IMG/VR virus record: IMGVR_UViG_3300021256_000038
Reading direction: 5' to 3' (one strand)
DNA length: 37,101 nucleotides
Source of the DNA: a virus
The translations under genes were made by a program, and so were the position numbers. Shown in pieces: positions 128 through 30,787 of this stretch; positions within the stretch are counted from its first letter, which is position 1; the number at the start of each line of letters is the position of its first letter. The notes under the pieces were generated by a model. It saw only the letters and a list, made by a program, of their open reading frames with translations. It had not been told where the DNA came from and searched no databases.

Positions 128-842
128 TCAAATGCTTTGTATTTCCCCATAGTGGCACGACAGGGAAAGATGGATAATTCTCATAGTTATAAATAATATC
201 GCCGTCCACATCATGCAATACATCAATCTTATAGGCTCTCTTGTCAGCAACAATACTCCATTCGCCTTTCTTACGCTTGAAATCTGTATAGCCATCTAAT
301 TCAAATAGCGTAACCCTCAACGGCTTATTGTCTGCAACCTGCCAGAACCTTACACCTGCTTTCAATCCTCCGTCTTCTTCGTCCCATAACGGAGCAAACT
401 CCAAGGCACTAAATACTTCTACATGGTCATAATTAAAGAAATTATAAGACACTCCATGCACCAACGCATTCATGCCAGATGATTGTAATTTAATGTCGAA
501 ATCATCTCCACCTAATTTCTCTTTGGTTGTTTCATCATTAAACACAACACCATTGCCTAATAAATACTGATTTTCCTGTGTTACAAACCTATTGAAATAA
601 TTTGATGCACACTTGTAATTTGCACTGTAATTGTCTACAACTGCTTTACCTGTAACTGTATACAACAGCTTTTTATATTCTCTGATTGTAACATTGTCCT
701 GTCTGTTGTAGGAATCAGCAATAACAGCCTCTTTATAGAAAGAGCTTGATTTATACTCTACGATAACGCCATTAATAAACTGTGTAATGTCCTTGAAACT
801 TCTGTTTTCACCCAAAGCTAATAAATCTTGATACGTTTTCAT
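1..842 (-). CDS. Portal protein, N-terminal part (SPP1 gp6-type). The ORF runs off the left edge and continues at 36446-36974.
   Basis: ATG at 842-840 with GGAGG at 852-848. Hand translation MKTYQDLLALGENRSFKDITQF...LHGRRDEIDAYDLIRSGFANDLDDASMIYWTIKNAGGMDDV has no stop down to base 1. It joins the track ORF 36446..37060 in frame through the overlap. Joined length is 1371 nt, 456 aa. Confidence 0.85.
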   Translation of the reverse strand, partial: MKTYQDLLALGENRSFKDITQFINGVIVEYKSSSFYKEAVIADSYNRQDNVTIREYKKLLYTVTGKAVVDNYSANYKCASNYFNRFVTQENQYLLGNGVVFNDETTKEKLGGDDFDIKLQSSGMNALVHGVSYNFFNYDHVEVFSALEFAPLWDEEDGGLKAGVRFWQVADNKPLRVTLFELDGYTDFKRKKGEWSIVADKRAYKIDVLHDVDGDIIYNYENYPSFPVVPLWGNTKHLSELHGRRDEIDAYDLIRSGFANDLDDASMIYWTIKNAGGMDD

Positions 843-851
843 ATTGACCTC

Positions 852-3053
852 CTATTTCTTTTTCTTCATGATTCTTGCCAAGCATGCCGCACTATCACAA
901 TTCGATACTAATACACCATTTGCATAATAACAGCCTGCCTTCTCAACTGTGAGATTGTACACGGGCATAATATCGTTGTTTGCATAATGATGAACAGAAT
1001 TTATGTTTTGCTGACTTTGCTGTAAATGTGTTTCCGCAACATGCACATTGCTTTTCACATGGAGTGAATTTAAGCCCAATTCTTCTACGTCTTGCCTTTT
1101 GTTGGCAATTAACGCAACAAAATCTTTGCGTTTTTGTTGCAAGAAATTCTTTACCGCAAAATTCACAAATCTTAGGTGTTTCGTGTTTGCTCGCTTTGAG
1201 AATTGATTCTGCTGAATGTTTTCTATGCCATTCTCTGCCTTCTTCTGATTTATGCCATTCTTTTGCTTTTTCTCCTGCTTGAAGTAATTGTTCTTTGTTA
1301 CGTTCTCGATAATCTTCATTTTGCATATTTCTTTTAGCGTGCATCGACAGATGTTCCCTAGCTGATATACACTCCAGATTGCTGATGTCGTTATTGTCGA
1401 CATCACCATCAATATGATGTATGTGATAGCCTTTAGGAATTTCTCCATTGTAATATTCCCACACTGCTCTATGAAGCTGTCTGGCATTTTTTCTTTCTGC
1501 GTTTTTGGTTGTGTACTTGAAATAATATCGGCTCTTTGGATTTCTGATATAGGTTTCTCCATTGAATACAATAGTCTTTTTTTCCATGATAGTAACCTCC
1601 TTAATCCTATTGTATCAATTCTATCCGCACTATTCAAGCTATCCGCTGTTTTAAAGCCTTGATTATAAGTAAAAAATTTATGGTCATGCGTTGCATTTAC
1701 GCCATAATAATTACCTACTTTCTTATATCCTGTTATTCCTGCAAACGTCACTTTCCTAATTCCTGCTGGTGTTATTACATATTCTCCTATCTTTATATCT
1801 TTTATGGGTTTATTGCCTGTCAATGTCGCAATCATAGTGTTACCGTCTAAACATGCATCATCATGTTCTGCATTTTCGGTGTAATCTTCTATCTGCTTGA
1901 TATATTCTTCATCAGTTCCCTCAACAAATACAACCTCTTTCCATATTGCCTTAAGACACGTTGTTATCTTTATATGCTTGTTCATATCTTCATGGTACGT
2001 GACAACTTTCATGCCATAGGTCTTTCTCATTGCTTTTGCGACTAGTCCTTTATCAGCATTCTTTTCATTGTACAGCTTTCCTACCAATAAATAATCATAC
2101 CACCTCTTAATATCACTATAACAATCTTCTACATGCTTTCGCCATATTTTTCCAAAAACATAATATTTTCCATCGTGCTTCTGCATGACTGTTAAAGCTG
2201 TATAATCTTCTCCATAAAAGGCACTGTCCACATGAGCCAATCCATTCATGACAGCTGATGTGTCTGCTCTCTCTTTCTTAGGTTCAAAGATAACATCACT
2301 GTCGGCTCTATGCTTTAATTCATAGTTCGCACTAAACAATGACAAATCCATATGGTCTTTCTTGTATTGGATTTCTTCATCAGTAAGTAGCCCTGTTGTA
2401 TAACAATCATACTTTTTTGGTTTAGGCATCTTTGTAAAGGCATCATCTTTATGCCAAGGCGTACCTGTATTGAAAATACGTCCTGTCTCAATCTTGATGT
2501 TCTGCAATTCATCATAGATACGCTTAGTATGTTCTCTTTCTTTCTTTGAATATCTATCAGAGATGTTAACAATATCATCTGTAAATATCCTGTCGTAATG
2601 CTTTCCTGTTATCGAGGTATTCATACCTTTAGCAGTTAATTGGCATGTACCTCGTGGTCCATTAGCCAAATTGGTAGATAATTCATAGGCACTCTCTTTT
2701 GTAAGGTAGAAATCACAGCCGTATAACATTCTAACAAGATAGATGGTAAATGGATTCTTAATCATCTTCTTTACCTGTGCGATGATTTCTTTCACATCAT
2801 CATCGGTCTTACGCATGAACATGGTAGTGTCGTTTGGATAAAGAATAATAATAAGCAAAAAGGCGATAGATACGCATGTAGTCTTATAAGAACCACGATG
2901 TGCCTGTAACGTATCATCACCTTTGCCATATACCATGTCTTGAATCCATTTGTTATGAAGTTTCTTCTTTAGTTTTGTGAAACCTAATTCATGTGCAAGT
3001 GCAACAGGATTATCACGCAACTGTTTTAAAATCTTCTTCTGAATGGCATTCAT
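852..3053 (-). CDS. terL: Terminase large subunit precursor (400-aa N-extein, 318-aa intein, 15-aa C-extein).
   Basis: 733-aa ORF. ATPase motifs are HRGSYKTT (Walker A-like), RIFTDD (Walker B) and NTGTPW. Nuclease aspartates are HVDSAF and EHDDA. The frame is interrupted by CLDGNTM...VLVSN and resumes as CDSAACLARIM. The spliced size of 415 aa is typical for TerL. Confidence 0.9.
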   Translation of the reverse strand: MNAIQKKILKQLRDNPVALAHELGFTKLKKKLHNKWIQDMVYGKGDDTLQAHRGSYKTTCVSIAFLLIIILYPNDTTMFMRKTDDDVKEIIAQVKKMIKNPFTIYLVRMLYGCDFYLTKESAYELSTNLANGPRGTCQLTAKGMNTSITGKHYDRIFTDDIVNISDRYSKKEREHTKRIYDELQNIKIETGRIFNTGTPWHKDDAFTKMPKPKKYDCYTTGLLTDEEIQYKKDHMDLSLFSANYELKHRADSDVIFEPKKERADTSAVMNGLAHVDSAFYGEDYTALTVMQKHDGKYYVFGKIWRKHVEDCYSDIKRWYDYLLVGKLYNEKNADKGLVAKAMRKTYGMKVVTYHEDMNKHIKITTCLKAIWKEVVFVEGTDEEYIKQIEDYTENAEHDDACLDGNTMIATLTGNKPIKDIKIGEYVITPAGIRKVTFAGITGYKKVGNYYGVNATHDHKFFTYNQGFKTADSLNSADRIDTIGLRRLLSWKKRLLYSMEKPISEIQRADIISSTQPKTQKEKMPDSFIEQCGNITMEKFLKAITYIILMVMSTITTSAIWSVYQLGNICRCTLKEICKMKIIENVTKNNYFKQEKKQKNGINQKKAENGIENIQQNQFSKRANTKHLRFVNFAVKNFLQQKRKDFVALIANKRQDVEELGLNSLHVKSNVHVAETHLQQSQQNINSVHHYANNDIMPVYNLTVEKAGCYYANGVLVSNCDSAACLARIMKKKK
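900..1853 (-). mobile_element. Intein (Hint domain) inserted in the C-terminal nuclease motif of TerL.
   Basis: Block A is C-LDGNTMIATLTG (Cys1 codon 1853-1851). Block B is NATHDHKF (TxxH). Blocks F/G are VYNLTVEKAGCYYANGVLVSN (Asn codon 902-900), followed by the +1 Cys. The exteins rejoin to EHDDA-CDSAA, resembling the conserved hDDxxD nuclease motif. Confidence 0.85.
943..1587 (-). CDS. Free-standing HNH homing endonuclease nested inside the intein in a different reading frame.
   Basis: 214 aa with the HNH core HIHHIDGDVDNNDISNLECISAREH plus C-terminal CxxC zinc-ribbon pairs (CEFCG, CVNC, CACCG). It has its own ATG at 1587 and GGAGG at 1600-1596 with an 8-nt spacer. There is an in-frame TGA 9 codons upstream of the ATG. 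Confidence 0.85.
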   Translation of the reverse strand: MEKKTIVFNGETYIRNPKSRYYFKYTTKNAERKNARQLHRAVWEYYNGEIPKGYHIHHIDGDVDNNDISNLECISAREHLSMHAKRNMQNEDYRERNKEQLLQAGEKAKEWHKSEEGREWHRKHSAESILKASKHETPKICEFCGKEFLATKTQRFCCVNCQQKARRRRIGLKFTPCEKQCACCGNTFTAKSAKHKFCSSLCKQRYYARVQSHS

Positions 3054-3055
3054 GA

Positions 3056-3412
3056 TTATTCCTCTAGGAACTTAGTAAATTCTTCTTGTACTTCATCACT
3101 AATATTGACGTTTGTATTTTCTACCTTATCAGTCTGTCCTAAGTACTGTTTGCCTAGCCAAATTAACATAGGAGTATTACCTCCCATTGCAACCTCAAAC
3201 TGCTTACGTCTCAATGAAATTTTTCCTTTGCCAGAGAATCTTTTAAAGCATTCGGAAAAATCCATCTTATACGTTCTTTTGCACCATTTGACTAGCGTTT
3301 TATCTGTTGTGTTAAAGAATGTACATATTTCACTTTGCGTACACATCAACCCACATAGATTTTCAAAATCTTTTTTATCGAAATCCTTTTGGGGTCTGCC
3401 TGCTTTAGCCAT
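3056..3412 (-). CDS. terS: Terminase small subunit (HTH type).
   Basis: 118 aa. The N-terminus is AKAGRPQKDF, with an HTH-like CTQSEICTFFNTTDKTLVKWCK, then GGNTPMLIWLGKQYLGQ, which is typical of small terminases. It sits immediately upstream of terL. Confidence 0.75.
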   Translation of the reverse strand: MAKAGRPQKDFDKKDFENLCGLMCTQSEICTFFNTTDKTLVKWCKRTYKMDFSECFKRFSGKGKISLRRKQFEVAMGGNTPMLIWLGKQYLGQTDKVENTNVNISDEVQEEFTKFLEE

Positions 3413-3464
3413 TTTAAATCACCTCGCTACTTCGTAGATTATCAAAGCAATAGTTTGGATTGAC

Positions 3465-3938
3465 CTATTTTTTTAGTTTTTTCAATACATCAATGGTCTT
3501 TTCTTCTGCCATGATTACATCATCAAACTTTCGCATTAACTCGACAATTTGCAATTGTGTCATTATATCTTCGTGCAATTCAATTTCAAAGAAAGAGAAA
3601 TCTGCCATTTGTATATTGATTGTACTTTGATAATTTGCTAAAAATTTTGGAACCGACCTTTCCAATGCAATTTTAAAATATTCAGGAACAACTTCAATTT
3701 TCGGTAAAATCACTGCATTTTTAGTTTCTATATAATTGTCGGAAGTTAACATATTTATTTGTCCATGCGTTGCGGAGACTTTGATATAACACGTTCCTTT
3801 CTGATATATTTGATTACGCTTAGCTCTCTGTACGTCTGCAATTTCAGTTAATTTATATTCTTTAGTTGTCAAATTCAAACTCCAACACCTCTTGTTTCCA
3901 CTTTCTTTGAGCACCTGTAACTGATTGCTTATACTCAC
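3465..3938 (-). CDS. hsdS: Type I HsdS-like specificity half-subunit (one target-recognition domain plus a conserved helix). The start is uncertain.
   Basis: TRD-like EYKLTEIADVQRAK...AVILPKIEVVPEYFKIAL, followed by a conserved-region helix HEDIMTQLQIVELMRKFDDVIMAEEKTIDVLKKLKK. A GTG start at 3938 overlaps the MTase 3' end by 77 nt. Confidence 0.65.
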   Translation of the reverse strand: MSISNQLQVLKESGNKRCWSLNLTTKEYKLTEIADVQRAKRNQIYQKGTCYIKVSATHGQINMLTSDNYIETKNAVILPKIEVVPEYFKIALERSVPKFLANYQSTINIQMADFSFFEIELHEDIMTQLQIVELMRKFDDVIMAEEKTIDVLKKLKK

Positions 3939-5133
3939 GCACTCCCTTTTTTAGTTTTGAGTCTGATTCAAATGTGGTTCCATGCATTTCTCTAATCATA
4001 TCCAACAATGCTTTTTTTGTCTTAAAACATTCATCTTCTAACATTGCCAGCTCCTGCATAGTTTCAACAAAATCAGGTATCGGCTCTGGAATGTAAGTAT
4101 CTACATATCTTGGAATATTTAAATTGCTTTCGTTTTTTTCAATTTCTTCAAACGTTGCAACATGGGTGAATCGCTTTATATCGGTACGAGATTTATAAGC
4201 ATTAATTATACGTGTTAAATTTTTATCCCGAATTATATTTTTTTGTTTAACCTTTTCGGCTTCATCTTTTGCGTCAATAAAATATACGTCCGAATCAGTT
4301 CGCCCTTTTTCAATTTCAATGACACAAGTAGGTATGTCGGTATTAATAAAAAGTTTATTAGGTAATCCAATTATCGTGCGAATCAAATTTTTTTGCAACA
4401 TCAATTGTCTGAACTTTTTTTCTTTATTGCTTCTAAACAACACGCCGTGTGGCAAAATGAACGCACATTTTCCTTTGTCTTTTAAAATTGATAGTGCAAA
4501 TGCAACAAACACAAAGTCCGCAAAGTTTGTCGGTAGCATATCAGCAAACTGTGGGAATCTGTTATCATTCTTCGGATTATATTTCATTGAATATGGTGGA
4601 TTGCTGATAACAGCGTCCACCTTAATTTGTGGAATTTCAATAACCTGTCTCACATTTGAAAAGTGTTCACTAGGTGTAACTTCATATGTTTCAAATGTTT
4701 CACCTGTCAGCAAATCAGCACGATAAACAATAGCATTTATGTTTCTGATTGACAAATTGAATAGTAACAAAGGTATCGCACGACTGCTCAATTCGTAGCA
4801 TATGAATTTTGATGATTTATTATGATTCCAAACACCAATTGTTAAACCACCTGTGCCAGCACACACATCGGCTATTACACCAGCTTTTTCTATAATTTGT
4901 GATAATAAACCACAAACTTCTGGTGGTGTAAAACACTGTGCCATTTTGCTTTTATTGGCATGTTCTTCTTCAAAATATTCTGTAAACCAATCATGATTTA
5001 GAGATTCGCCTAACTGCATGAATTGGTTGTAAATTGGTGTCATATCTTCGTTGAGTATTTTATGCAACAAGACACCAGGCAATTGAAAACTTTCTTGAAT
5101 CCCAAATATATGATTTATGTCTGCTGATTTCAT
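3862..5133 (-). CDS. hsdM: N6-adenine DNA methyltransferase, type I HsdM-like (gamma class), short form.
   Basis: 423 aa. The SAM motif is DVCAGTGGL, the catalytic motif is NPPYSMKY, and the HsdM-like C-terminal motif is NLNIPRYVD. Confidence 0.85.
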   Translation of the reverse strand: MKSADINHIFGIQESFQLPGVLLHKILNEDMTPIYNQFMQLGESLNHDWFTEYFEEEHANKSKMAQCFTPPEVCGLLSQIIEKAGVIADVCAGTGGLTIGVWNHNKSSKFICYELSSRAIPLLLFNLSIRNINAIVYRADLLTGETFETYEVTPSEHFSNVRQVIEIPQIKVDAVISNPPYSMKYNPKNDNRFPQFADMLPTNFADFVFVAFALSILKDKGKCAFILPHGVLFRSNKEKKFRQLMLQKNLIRTIIGLPNKLFINTDIPTCVIEIEKGRTDSDVYFIDAKDEAEKVKQKNIIRDKNLTRIINAYKSRTDIKRFTHVATFEEIEKNESNLNIPRYVDTYIPEPIPDFVETMQELAMLEDECFKTKKALLDMIREMHGTTFESDSKLKKGVREYKQSVTGAQRKWKQEVLEFEFDN

Positions 5134-28756: not shown

Positions 28757-30787
28757 TTAAACTCGTCTTACGACTCTCGCAAACTCTCTGTTATCAACTT
28801 CAATCTTCAATTCTTTTACAATGCCTAGCACCATATTTCTAACCAAGATAGTAAATCTGTCATAATCAAAATTATTGCCATGATTCTCCACTACATCTCT
28901 AATATCACGCATCAAATTATTTCTACCATACATGATTTCGTCTCCAGCTTCGCCAGCTCCAAACAATGTAGCACCACTGAACATATAAGGGCTGTTCATC
29001 GCCTTTTTATACCATTTTATGCTGAATTTAGGCAATGAACCTTTCCCCAATAATCCGAACGGTGGTTTACCACCAGATACCGAAATATGAGGTAATTTCA
29101 ATGACGGCAATGACCAATGGAAATTAAAGGCACTCTTGATTTTGCCTACAACACCACTGATTACACCCCACGCAGCCTTAAATGGCTTAACGAGAATGTT
29201 ATTCAGTGCTCCAAAAACTGTTGAAGCAACAGTTTTAATAGCATTAAAGCCTGTTTTAATGCCACTAGATAACGCCTTTACAACAGTCAACACAACAGTC
29301 TTGATGCCGTTCCAAACAGGTCCAGCAACAGATTTAATAGCATTGAAAACCGTTGTTACAGTAGTCTTGATTGCATTAAAAACTGTTTTAACCACAGGTG
29401 CAATAGCCTTTACTACGGTTACAATAACAGTCTTGATGCCGTTCCAAACAGGTCCAGCAACAGCCTTGATTGCTTTAAAAATTGTAGTCACAGTTACTTT
29501 GATTCCATTGAAAACGGCTTTGACCACAGGTGCGATAGCATTTACTACAGTTGTAATAGCTGATTTGATGCCATTCCAGATAGAAATAACAGCACTTCTG
29601 AAACCTTTATTGGTATTCCATAGATACATGACAACACCAACTAATGCACCGATAATACCGATAATAACGGTTACAGGACCACCTAAAAGACCAATGACAG
29701 CACCAATACCACCAATAACGGTGCTAACACCAGAAAACGCAGTCATGATAGCTGTACCGATACCCATAATAGTACCGACCACGCCTGTAATGATAGGCAA
29801 TACAACACCAACTGCAACAGCGATACCACCAATAGCACTAGCAATAATGCTAAAAATTGTAGAATGCTGTGAAATAAAATTAAAGATTCCCTCAATAACA
29901 GGCTTTACTGCATTAATAACTCCCATGACGGTAGAGCTTAATGTATTGAACGCACTAGAAATTGTAGGTCCCACAGCTTGGCTTATTTTATCAACAGCAG
30001 GCAATACATTATTGGTAATAAATTCCATCACCTTTGCACCTAACTGATACGCATTGGCGATGGCTGGCTGTAATTTAGCTCCAATCTGTTCCTTTAAATC
30101 ACCGATTGTGTTCTTTGCCTGTTGGATTTTACCAGCATCTGTCTTTGCAAATGCTTCATTCATGTTACCAACATTTTTTGTGATAATCTGGGCTAATGTA
30201 GATGCTCTCTGTTGTTCTGTACCTGTCTTTAAGAGCTTTTCTTCATGCGCATCAAACGTGATACCTACACGTTTTAAGGCACTTGTCTGCCCCTGTAAGA
30301 CTTTTCCGAACATATTGCCATAATTGACCATATCACCTGTTGTGACGTTTACACCTTTCTGCTGTACAGCTAGGTTATTCAATGCTGGCATCAATGTTTT
30401 AACTGATTTCTCGCTTTTTAAGAATGTAGCAACCTGTTGAGCACCTGCCAACTGCACTTCATCACCAACAACACCAATCTTCTGTAATTGACTCGCATAG
30501 TCCTTTACAGACTGAATACCCTTATCAGTGGCACCCATTCTTTGTTTCATGACAACTTCTAATTTCTTTTCCTGTTCTGCCTGTACGCCATAAGCATCTA
30601 GACATTCCTTGCCAAAAGAAACTATTTTAGCAACAGAAAATGCAACTGCAATAACAGAACCGATTTTTTTAAAAGAGTTAGCCATGCCACTGCTTGATGT
30701 TTCAGCATTGCTTTTTGCGGTGCTCAACCCATTATCAAATTCTCTCGTATTTAGCTTTAGAGAAGCCCACACATCAAAAGCATTCAT
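28757..30787 (-). CDS. Tape measure protein.
   Basis: 676 aa. It has a central hydrophobic, Gly-rich TM-like block and 44-aa/11-aa periodic repeats such as AGPVWNGIKTV..TVVKA. It follows the chaperone pair. Confidence 0.9.
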   Translation of the reverse strand: MNAFDVWASLKLNTREFDNGLSTAKSNAETSSSGMANSFKKIGSVIAVAFSVAKIVSFGKECLDAYGVQAEQEKKLEVVMKQRMGATDKGIQSVKDYASQLQKIGVVGDEVQLAGAQQVATFLKSEKSVKTLMPALNNLAVQQKGVNVTTGDMVNYGNMFGKVLQGQTSALKRVGITFDAHEEKLLKTGTEQQRASTLAQIITKNVGNMNEAFAKTDAGKIQQAKNTIGDLKEQIGAKLQPAIANAYQLGAKVMEFITNNVLPAVDKISQAVGPTISSAFNTLSSTVMGVINAVKPVIEGIFNFISQHSTIFSIIASAIGGIAVAVGVVLPIITGVVGTIMGIGTAIMTAFSGVSTVIGGIGAVIGLLGGPVTVIIGIIGALVGVVMYLWNTNKGFRSAVISIWNGIKSAITTVVNAIAPVVKAVFNGIKVTVTTIFKAIKAVAGPVWNGIKTVIVTVVKAIAPVVKTVFNAIKTTVTTVFNAIKSVAGPVWNGIKTVVLTVVKALSSGIKTGFNAIKTVASTVFGALNNILVKPFKAAWGVISGVVGKIKSAFNFHWSLPSLKLPHISVSGGKPPFGLLGKGSLPKFSIKWYKKAMNSPYMFSGATLFGAGEAGDEIMYGRNNLMRDIRDVVENHGNNFDYDRFTILVRNMVLGIVKELKIEVDNREFARVVRRV
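29295..29558. repeat. Tandem 132-bp (44-aa) repeats inside the tape measure gene.
   Basis: acagtcttgatgccgttccaaacaggtccagcaacag occurs at 29295 and again at 29427. accacaggtgc(a/g)atagc recurs 132 bp apart. Confidence 0.8.

Follow-up and report, generated by a model that had tools for sequence, protein, structure and literature searches.

The terminase large subunit gene (terL) of the virus record IMGVR_UViG_3300021256_000038, analysed here as one window of 37,101 nucleotides (nt), contains an intein whose DNA also encodes, on the same strand and shifted by one base, an HNH endonuclease. The element very probably combines a functional class-1 intein with an independently initiated, I-HmuI-like homing endonuclease gene of the HNH_3 family, which lies in the -1 frame at the usual endonuclease position. 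An initial annotation of the window had regarded this arrangement as undescribed. That view no longer holds, because out-of-frame homing endonucleases in inteins were reported in 2025-26 by the Gogarten lab. The architecture is already known; what is new is the HNH_3 nuclease family within it and the broad range of phages in which it occurs.

Anatomy of the intein and the overprinted HNH gene

The terL open reading frame (ORF) is preceded by a small-terminase-like gene and followed by a portal gene, and the best full-length relatives of its product in protein searches carry a TerL-intein label. The insert that interrupts it (Table 1) starts with CLDGNTMIA, with Cys1 at 1853..1851 and the block B residues T55-H-D-H58 at 1691..1680, and ends in GVLVSN followed by Cys at position +1, which is Cys, Ser or Thr among relatives. 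In an alignment of 14 homologues C1, T55, H58 and N318 are invariant, as are V298, Y299, N300 and L301 and, at the very end, L315, V316, S317 and N318 of the C-terminal lobe. In the TerL nuclease domain, the insertion point lies just ahead of the last catalytic Asp motif (EHDDA, then C-D-S). All relatives carry the insert at the same site, directly before the conserved Asp of this motif (HDDx, then C/S/T-D-A/S; DALRY in many loci). These features characterise a putative class-1 intein of the Hint fold that is predicted to splice, and its activity can be inferred because terL is essential and cultured phages carry such inteins. In an AlphaFold model of the precursor, the confidence score pLDDT (predicted local distance difference test) is 85-95 for the TerL body (extein), 60-70 for the N-terminal splicing lobe and 27-53 for the spacer between the two lobes. 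These low scores, together with the lack of any Pfam domain, agree with the initial description of the spacer as a linker without a recognisable domain.

Each codon of the HNH ORF begins one base upstream of a terL codon, which corresponds to the -1 frame, or "frame 3". The product contains the motif HIHHIDGDVDNNDISNLECISAREH and matches Pfam HNH_3 (PF13392) with 65.5 bits (E = 3e-18; cut-off 24.8 bits). The 214-aa HNH ORF placed by the initial annotation in a frame other than that of terL and the intein is confirmed, and so is the overlap of its 3' end with the block F codons. Pfam detected no HNH_3 domain in the terL/intein frame and no Endonuclease_7 match in the HNH product, for which HNH_3 was the sole hit at E-values up to 0.1. 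In an alignment of 43 sequences the catalytic residues H57, H58, D60, N65, N66, N70, H79 and H83 are invariant, as are the zinc-ribbon cysteines C141, C144, C157 and C161, and C181, C184, C198 and C202 are nearly so. AlphaFold models the protein with a mean pLDDT of 91.5 as a beta-hairpin, an HNH core, a helical stalk and two zinc ribbons. The best fold match in the PDB is I-HmuI (1U3E; Foldseek probability 0.98), with a sequence identity of 20% and a TM-score of 0.29-0.35; the probability is high and the TM-score low because the model is an extended protein of several modules. No match in the fold search with this model had an E-value of 0.001 or less, and the zinc ribbons showed weak fold similarity to YacG-type zinc ribbons (E = 0.4-1.9).

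The start signals named by the initial annotation, an ATG of its own, a GGAGG with an 8-nt spacer and a stop 9 codons upstream, were all read at the positions given in Table 1. RNA folding around the start is unremarkable (z = -1.2, not significant). There is no excess of sigma-70-like sites that would indicate an internal promoter (12 found, 12.2 expected). Two weak promoter matches just upstream of the ATG (1637..1609 and 1618..1589) were given no weight.

Expression of the element would follow two routes. Ribosomes translating terL would produce a 733-aa precursor, in which the intein would consist of the 88-aa N-terminal lobe, a spacer of about 205 aa that is the off-frame translation of the HNH gene, and the C-terminal lobe of about 22 aa. 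Protein splicing would take out all 318 residues and leave a TerL of 415 aa. The 214-aa HNH protein would come from other ribosomes, which would initiate inside terL at the GGAGG-N8-ATG.

Table 1. Coordinates of the terL precursor, the intein, the HNH gene and associated features in the window
Feature	Position	Strand	Details
terL (terminase large subunit) precursor ORF	852..3053	-	733 aa including the intein; stop codon 852..854
N-extein	1854..3053	-	400 aa, ending in YTENAEHDDA; aligns to the intein-less allele L081 exactly up to 1854
Intein	900..1853	-	318 aa, precursor Cys401-Asn718; precisely absent from L081 (protein P0003)
N-terminal splicing lobe, blocks A and B	1588..1853	-	88 aa; read in the terL frame only
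Intein-frame spacer	966..1587	-	about 205 aa, within the precursor; 0 stops, no Pfam domain
C-terminal splicing lobe, blocks F and G (PVYNLTVEKAGCYYANGVLVSN)	900..965	-	about 22 aa; shares 943..965 at its start with the end of the HNH ORF, stop codon included
C-extein	855..899	-	15 aa: CDSAACLARIMKKKK
HNH homing endonuclease ORF	943..1587	-	214 aa, ATG 1587..1585; -1 frame ("frame 3") relative to terL
HNH catalytic core	1339..1425	-	H55, H57, H58, D60, N65/N66, N70, H79, H83
Two CxxC...CxxxC zinc-ribbon modules, putatively DNA-binding	982..1167	-	in the HNH protein
Shine-Dalgarno GGAGG of the HNH ORF	1596..1600	-	8 nt ahead of the ATG; encoded by Arg-Arg codons of the intein frame
In-frame TGA closing the HNH frame	1615..1617	-	9 codons upstream of the ATG
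Probable co-conversion patch	882..899	-	18 nt by the insertion site: TGTGATAGTGCGGCATGC (CDSAAC) in the window, CCAGATTCATGCTCATGT (PDSCSC) in L081

Conservation of the two-frame layout and selection on the two frames

A scan of IMG/VR with the alignment of 14 inteins revealed at least 191 loci that encode a relative of this intein, and the layout was checked in the best 80. All 80 have the HNH gene only at frame offset 2 relative to the intein (phmmer E 1e-11 to 1e-105). The intein frame is free of stops over 590-1090 nt in 78 of them, and the third frame contains 14-55 stops. The other two, L051 and L052 (IMG/VR 3300033153_004336 and 3300033144_005679; GC content 26%; intein at 3001-3966), show ten "stops" in the intein frame, all of them TGA, and both this frame and the HNH frame are open when read in genetic code 4. 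Their exteins and HNH ORFs also contain in-frame TGA, and TAA and TAG are still avoided in the intein frame. Judging from this codon usage, the pair evidently represents a phage recoded to TGA = Trp (code 4) that carries the same two-frame element. A version of the intein with HNH_3 in frame was absent from the 80 loci and from the 120 best HNH homologues listed (167-320 aa), in a search that was not exhaustive. Neither stops in the terL frame of homologues, with the recoded pair read in code 4, nor a homologue with an in-frame HNH was found; the initial annotation had named such stops, or resequencing that puts the HNH in frame, as evidence against its reading. Of 64 distinct complete loci, 62 start the HNH gene with an ATG at the homologous position; the start lies at a median distance of 263 nt into the intein, and the HNH stop lies 55 or 43 nt ahead of the intein end in 43 of the 64. 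Together, the 80 relatives and the conserved ATG support the core of the initial annotation, namely that an HNH gene with its own initiation is overprinted on an intein and that the frame of this intein stays open.

Taken alone, a single metagenomic window would leave room for a sequencing or assembly artefact, in which two compensating indels put an ordinary in-frame HNH domain of the intein out of frame. The same frame offset, however, recurs in 80 of 80 loci, which are independent and stem from many samples, as well as in isolate genomes and a metagenome-assembled genome (MAG), and no relative has the HNH in frame 0. Such indels would also leave unexplained why the alternative frame lacks stops and why a conserved ATG follows an in-frame stop, and the probability of an artefact is negligible.

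The exact -1 position of the HNH frame raises another alternative, namely that the HNH protein is made from the terL frame by -1 ribosomal frameshifting or by termination-reinitiation instead of free internal initiation. Where the overlap begins, the window has a run rich in A (GGAAAAAAAG) that would be compatible with slippage, and about half of the relatives lack an obvious Shine-Dalgarno (SD) motif (SD-like 4-mers precede the HNH start in 31 of the 64 distinct loci). However, the A-run is not conserved among relatives, the GGAGG-N8-ATG of the window is strong, and the RNA at the start folds in an ordinary manner, as mentioned above. Moreover, an in-frame stop is located a median of 4 codons upstream of the conserved ATG, and at most 10 codons upstream in 55 of the 64 distinct loci. 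Because the HNH frame is closed so shortly before its start codon, independent initiation is favoured over frameshifting from far upstream, and production of the HNH protein from the terL frame seems very unlikely.

The carriers are mainly phages of Firmicutes and Proteobacteria, plus the TGA-recoded phage. Direct reading of the frames revealed the same layout in the cultured phages phiCDHM19 (C. difficile), TJE1 (Tetrasphaera) and Highwayman (Acinetobacter), in all of which terL is annotated as a single long gene. It was also found in a Lachnospiraceae MAG, the one locus obtained from a scan of bacterial genomes with narrower peptide patterns, which is a hint to hosts and not a census. Searches with the full precursor protein returned many TerL proteins in which a homologous insert is read through without interruption (700-760 aa, 40-70% identity), and also hundreds of intein-less TerL of about 420 aa. 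By megablast, positions 700-3200 of the window have no close DNA relatives among GenBank phages. By position, HNH matches that probably represent the same layout further occur in phiCD119 (NC_007917, 1818-2432) under an ORF annotated as "hypothetical protein", and in the Vibrio phages 1.238.A and 1.238.B (MG592603 and MG592604) under a terL or Hint-domain annotation ("hint domain protein"). The embedded HNH gene is not annotated in the GenBank records of the cultured phages. Two relatives, L007 and L008 (IMG/VR 3300032030_001240 and 3300028888_000235), have an open frame of 846 codons upstream of the intein, about twice the usual N-extein, which may represent a fused gene or a second insertion element in the same terL.

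Over the 645 nt of the HNH ORF, the terL/intein frame of the window contains no stop, as the initial annotation had stated, versus 19 in the third frame (about 21 expected). The accompanying estimate of one stop every 15-20 codons is too high for a frame that runs across a coding HNH gene, in which a stop arises only where an HNH codon ends in TA and the next base is A or G, or where it ends in TG and the next base is A. Shuffling of synonymous codons in the window HNH ORF led to an expectation of 3.35 stops, and the openness is still significant (P(0) = 0.004). Shuffling of codon order raised the expectation to 5.8, and none of 1000 shuffles reached zero (P(0) < 0.001). All 67 distinct HNH ORFs (66 related ones and that of the window) have no stop in the intein frame, with a mean expectation of 3.0 and a mean P(0) of 0.045. 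Eight free-standing HNH homologues provide a natural control and contain 2-12 stops in the corresponding frame. The open frame is significant for the window alone and overwhelming across the family. The two-frame layout is real and widespread, and the data exclude misassembly, a pseudogene and a frame left open by chance.

Selection was assessed by the ratio of nonsynonymous to synonymous substitution rates (dN/dS) between the window and the intein-plus relatives L082 and L083 (93-94% nt identity in the intein). In the N-terminal splicing lobe the intein frame has a dN/dS of 0.04-0.09, with differences mostly at intein codon position 3. Within the overlap the HNH frame has a dN/dS of 0.09-0.16, and the differences fall at HNH position 3 (24 of 37 in one pair). 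The same sites are position 2 of the intein codons, and the dN/dS of the intein frame is 1.0-2.8. The dS of the HNH gene (0.19-0.27) compared with that of the N-terminal lobe (0.27-0.41) deviates in the direction expected for synonymous suppression, although the sites are too few for the difference to be called. Purifying selection acts on the amino-acid sequence of the HNH protein, and the spacer in the terL frame is selected only for the absence of stops. Selection on both frames, as initially proposed, is therefore upheld for the HNH protein; for the intein frame, what remains of the proposal is stop avoidance.

It could still be argued that the spacer is itself a functional domain and that the overlap represents true dual coding, since its frame is open in every relative and the columns W90, L94, L95, E104, R107, G132, W160 and Y163 are invariant. 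These residues, however, lie over the most conserved HNH codons and the ATG, and they are invariant because of the overlapping HNH gene. The invariant Trp of the spacer "WK" provides the TG of the HNH start codon, and the preceding Arg-Arg or Lys-Glu codons provide the SD motif. The concentration of substitutions at intein position 2, the dN/dS of the intein frame, the low pLDDT and the lack of a Pfam domain also speak against a functional spacer, and a 2025 preprint reports the same lack of structure for its cases (bioRxiv 10.1101/2025.01.02.630785). A function of the spacer in its own right is highly improbable.

Mobility, the free-standing form and the genomic neighbourhood

The comparison of intein-plus and intein-minus terL alleles suggested by the initial annotation became possible through L081 (protein P0003), an intein-less allele of the window terL, which lacks both the intein and the HNH gene between terS (the small terminase gene), terL and the portal start. 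The sequences flanking the 954-nt insert are 94.8% identical at the nucleotide level up to the last base of the N-extein (1854) and 98.5% identical from 886 onwards. Next to the insertion site, about half of the nucleotides in an 18-nt patch differ between the two alleles, compared with 95-98.5% identity in the flanks, and the window version of the patch matches that of the intein-plus relatives L082 and L083. The patch looks like a co-conversion tract that would supply the required Cys+1, and such a patch would probably destroy the target site. The candidate target of the HNH protein is the region of L081 where GATGATGCA meets CCAGATTCATGCTCATGT, also written as the GATGATGCA-CCAGATTCATGC region, which would be cleaved or nicked. 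During co-infection, the HNH protein would cut or nick an intein-less terL near the insertion site, and the ensuing repair would copy intein and HNH gene together with a short patch of the C-extein. The unit of intein and HNH gene retains 93-94% nt identity between terL genes whose N-exteins share about 70% of their nucleotides and 50-60% at the protein level. As the unit is far more alike than the N-exteins, it must have been transferred horizontally in recent time.

The closest free-standing relatives of the HNH protein, P0129 (67% identity) and P0138 (58%), are each encoded 60-75 nt downstream of an intein-less terL and have a GGAGG of their own. The adjacent terL genes belong to the same family as that of the window, with 52-54% identity to its extein. 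In both cases the DNA directly after the HNH stop codon repeats the 3' end of terL. In locus L092 this repeat encodes CPDSLASLIRIIGRRKNRAA followed by a stop; the protein sequence is identical to the real terL end and the codons differ. Locus L088 shows the same pattern. The two copies lie at 2841-2931 and 3640-3705 in L092 and at about 2880-2940 and 3655-3735 in L088; the second terL 3' copy is untranslated and comprises 20 aa in L092. The cassette has thus inserted at the intein site of terL and brought a replacement terL 3' end, which now precedes it, whereas the original one follows. Between L092 and the embedded copy in L005, DNA homology starts about 40 nt before the ATG and stops about 26 nt before the HNH stop codon. 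These patterns support a role of the terL 3' region as a homing target and point to exchange between the free-standing and the intein-embedded state, in one direction or the other. A broader proposal is that one family of HNH_3 cassettes uses one terL site in two interchangeable forms that both spare the host gene, either out of frame in a stop-free mini-intein or free-standing with a replacement terL 3' end. It is put forward tentatively, with confidence that falls a little short of even.

More distant free-standing homologues always adjoin terS, terL or the portal gene. Other endonucleases were observed in the same region. GIY-YIG homing-endonuclease-like genes are situated directly upstream of terL or overlap its start in L083 and L084 (2436-3047) and in L088-L090 (1116-1682; 1286-1852 in L090), and one GIY-YIG-like gene has an I-HmuI NUMOD-like domain. 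The neighbourhood of terS, terL and the portal gene looks like a hotspot for several endonuclease families.

Some observations weigh against an active intein with an independently initiated homing endonuclease. The Pfam Intein_splicing match of the terL frame (E = 3e-8), which is interrupted by the long spacer, scores 34.0 bits and so falls just below the gathering cut-off of 35.8 bits. Two intein residues are non-canonical, with Ser in place of the usual penultimate His (VSN before the Cys) and Asn in place of the block F Asp (VYN). The SD signal is uneven, as an SD-like motif precedes the HNH start in about half of the relatives. The loci were retrieved by tblastn and by peptide patterns of the intein frame, and this way of retrieval is somewhat biased towards open frames. 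Finally, the places beside terS, terL or the portal gene, where the free-standing homologues are always found, are also those of packaging-accessory HNH proteins. As for the unusual residues, both replacements (LVSN before the Cys, and VYN) occur in most members of this intein family and could mean a variant splicing chemistry; a few members, among them that of Acinetobacter phage Highwayman, retain the canonical VYD and VHN.

The last of these points leads to the alternative that the HNH protein is a packaging accessory nuclease that works with the terminase, and is not, or not only, a homing endonuclease, its gene having come to lie in the intein. Copies in Acinetobacter BP10 and in a Planococcus prophage are located directly upstream of terS, where HNH genes for packaging classically lie, and aiding terminases in DNA packaging is counted among the functions of phage HNH proteins by Arsenault et al. 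(2025; PMC11855218). However, a terL locus with 95-99% identity has neither the intein nor the HNH gene, the unit of both is much more conserved than the host genes, and the duplicated terL 3' end that flanks the free-standing copies is the mark of an insertion. The best fold match of the modelled protein, the homing endonuclease I-HmuI, also argues for homing. SPP1-type portal and Mu-F head-morphogenesis genes accompany headful packaging, which does not need an HNH partner, and this too counts against a packaging role; both genes are present in the relatives L082 and L083 and are not annotated in the window itself. A packaging function is thus unlikely, and a homing endonuclease gene hosted by an intein remains the preferred interpretation.

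Two further observations concern the surroundings in the window. At 3465-5133 on the minus strand, directly upstream of the small-terminase-like gene, an N6-adenine DNA methylase gene (PF02384, 423 aa) is followed by an ORF of 157 aa with a weak match to a type I specificity (S) domain, and the two overlap by 77 nt. At 29136-30047 on the plus strand, an open frame of 303 codons with a TTG start runs antisense within an ORF of 676 aa (28757-30787, minus strand). The DNA around it has 34% GC and neither product has a Pfam match, so that this frame may be due to chance or may be another overlapping gene.

Relation to described systems and significance

Gosselin, Arsenault and Gogarten (bioRxiv 10.1101/2025.01.02.630785) described 63 non-canonical actinophage inteins; in some of them the homing endonuclease is endonuclease-VII-like and lies "in reading frame 3 relative to the intein". 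According to this preprint, non-canonical architectures occur in TerL, DNA polymerase, minor capsid protein and thymidylate synthase, no structure can be recognised in the in-frame region, and the proposed origin is the invasion of inteins by free-standing homing endonucleases. The initial view of the element as intermediate between a classical intein and the split-intein arrangement with a free-standing endonuclease agrees with this model. The window fits the layout described: between the splicing blocks the nuclease ORF occupies another frame of the same strand, the host frame is open and unstructured, and closely related intein-less alleles exist. It does not fit the nuclease type. The actinophage enzymes are endonuclease-VII-like, the only same-strand type described there, whereas the window encodes an HNH_3 protein similar to I-HmuI with two zinc ribbons. 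Consistent with this difference, tblastn with the HNH protein of the window or of TJE1 yielded no SEA-PHAGES-type actinophages (Mycobacterium, Gordonia, Arthrobacter) among the matches listed or the top organism counts.

For antisense LAGLIDADG ORFs in inteins, such as that of the Synechocystis (cyanobacterial) dnaX, the same preprint gives credit to Gorbalenya (1998) and Gogarten (2002), and a 2026 preprint (bioRxiv 10.64898/2026.09.14.751524) treats the dnaX intein, including selection in two reading frames. In these cases as well, the endonuclease is encoded in the intein DNA and lies outside the intein polypeptide, and secondary invasion of a mini-intein has been proposed as the origin. 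The dnaX and earlier LAGLIDADG cases are, however, described as antisense in the 2025 preprint, belong to another nuclease family and another host gene, and come from bacteria, not phages. The ShiLan domain, a hidden out-of-frame HNH within the DNA methylase of a mycobacteriophage (Arsenault et al., Genes 2025, PMC11855218), resembles the window in that an HNH ORF occupies an alternative frame of an open host gene and is distributed like a homing element. In contrast to the window, with its intein blocks, SD motif and ATG, ShiLan lacks splicing domains, so that its insert presumably stays in the protein, and its start is GTG with no SD motif. The fractured genes that carry split inteins (Dassa et al., 2009, PMC2677866) also have a free-standing-type endonuclease gene between the N- and C-terminal intein parts. 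There the host gene is divided into two ORFs and the products are joined by trans-splicing, whereas the window has a single ORF of 733 codons and 80 of 80 relatives are open through the overlap. With I-HmuI (1U3E), the intron-encoded HNH endonuclease of Bacillus phage SPO1, the modelled HNH protein has in common the beta-hairpin at the N-terminus, the HNH core and an extended tail that binds DNA; I-HmuI differs in its location in a group I intron and in having NUMOD and helix-turn-helix modules in place of the two zinc ribbons.

In the literature searched, no earlier description was found of an HNH_3 or I-HmuI-like endonuclease overprinted in a TerL intein, and no paper on phiCD119, phiCDHM19 or TJE1 was found that mentions an intein. 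The searches and the sections consulted likewise revealed no description of a free-standing twin with a duplicated terL 3' end. A family-wide test of stop avoidance for the HNH_3 family was not found in these sources either, which do not include the selection section of the 2026 dnaX preprint.

The intein with an out-of-frame endonuclease, reported in 2025-26 from actinophages and cyanobacteria, hence extends to another nuclease family and to a large set of phages of broad phylogeny, and the cultured carriers among C. difficile and Acinetobacter phages make the layout testable. For annotation, gene callers return the long terL ORF only and miss the HNH gene, which is hidden in some GenBank records as a "hypothetical protein" or "hint domain protein". 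The overlap is also a clean natural case in which selection keeps a frame open without constraining the encoded sequence, with the free-standing homologues as a built-in control. The splicing lobes, provided that they splice as predicted, tolerate a spacer of about 205 residues without sequence constraint, which is relevant to intein engineering. If the proposal of two interchangeable forms is true, the family is large (at least 191 IMG/VR loci, with carriers among phages of C. difficile, Acinetobacter and probably Vibrio) and unannotated in GenBank. Present-day phage populations would then preserve the step by which a free-standing homing endonuclease captures an intein or leaves it, which is the "splicing first" origin of the endonuclease domains in inteins.

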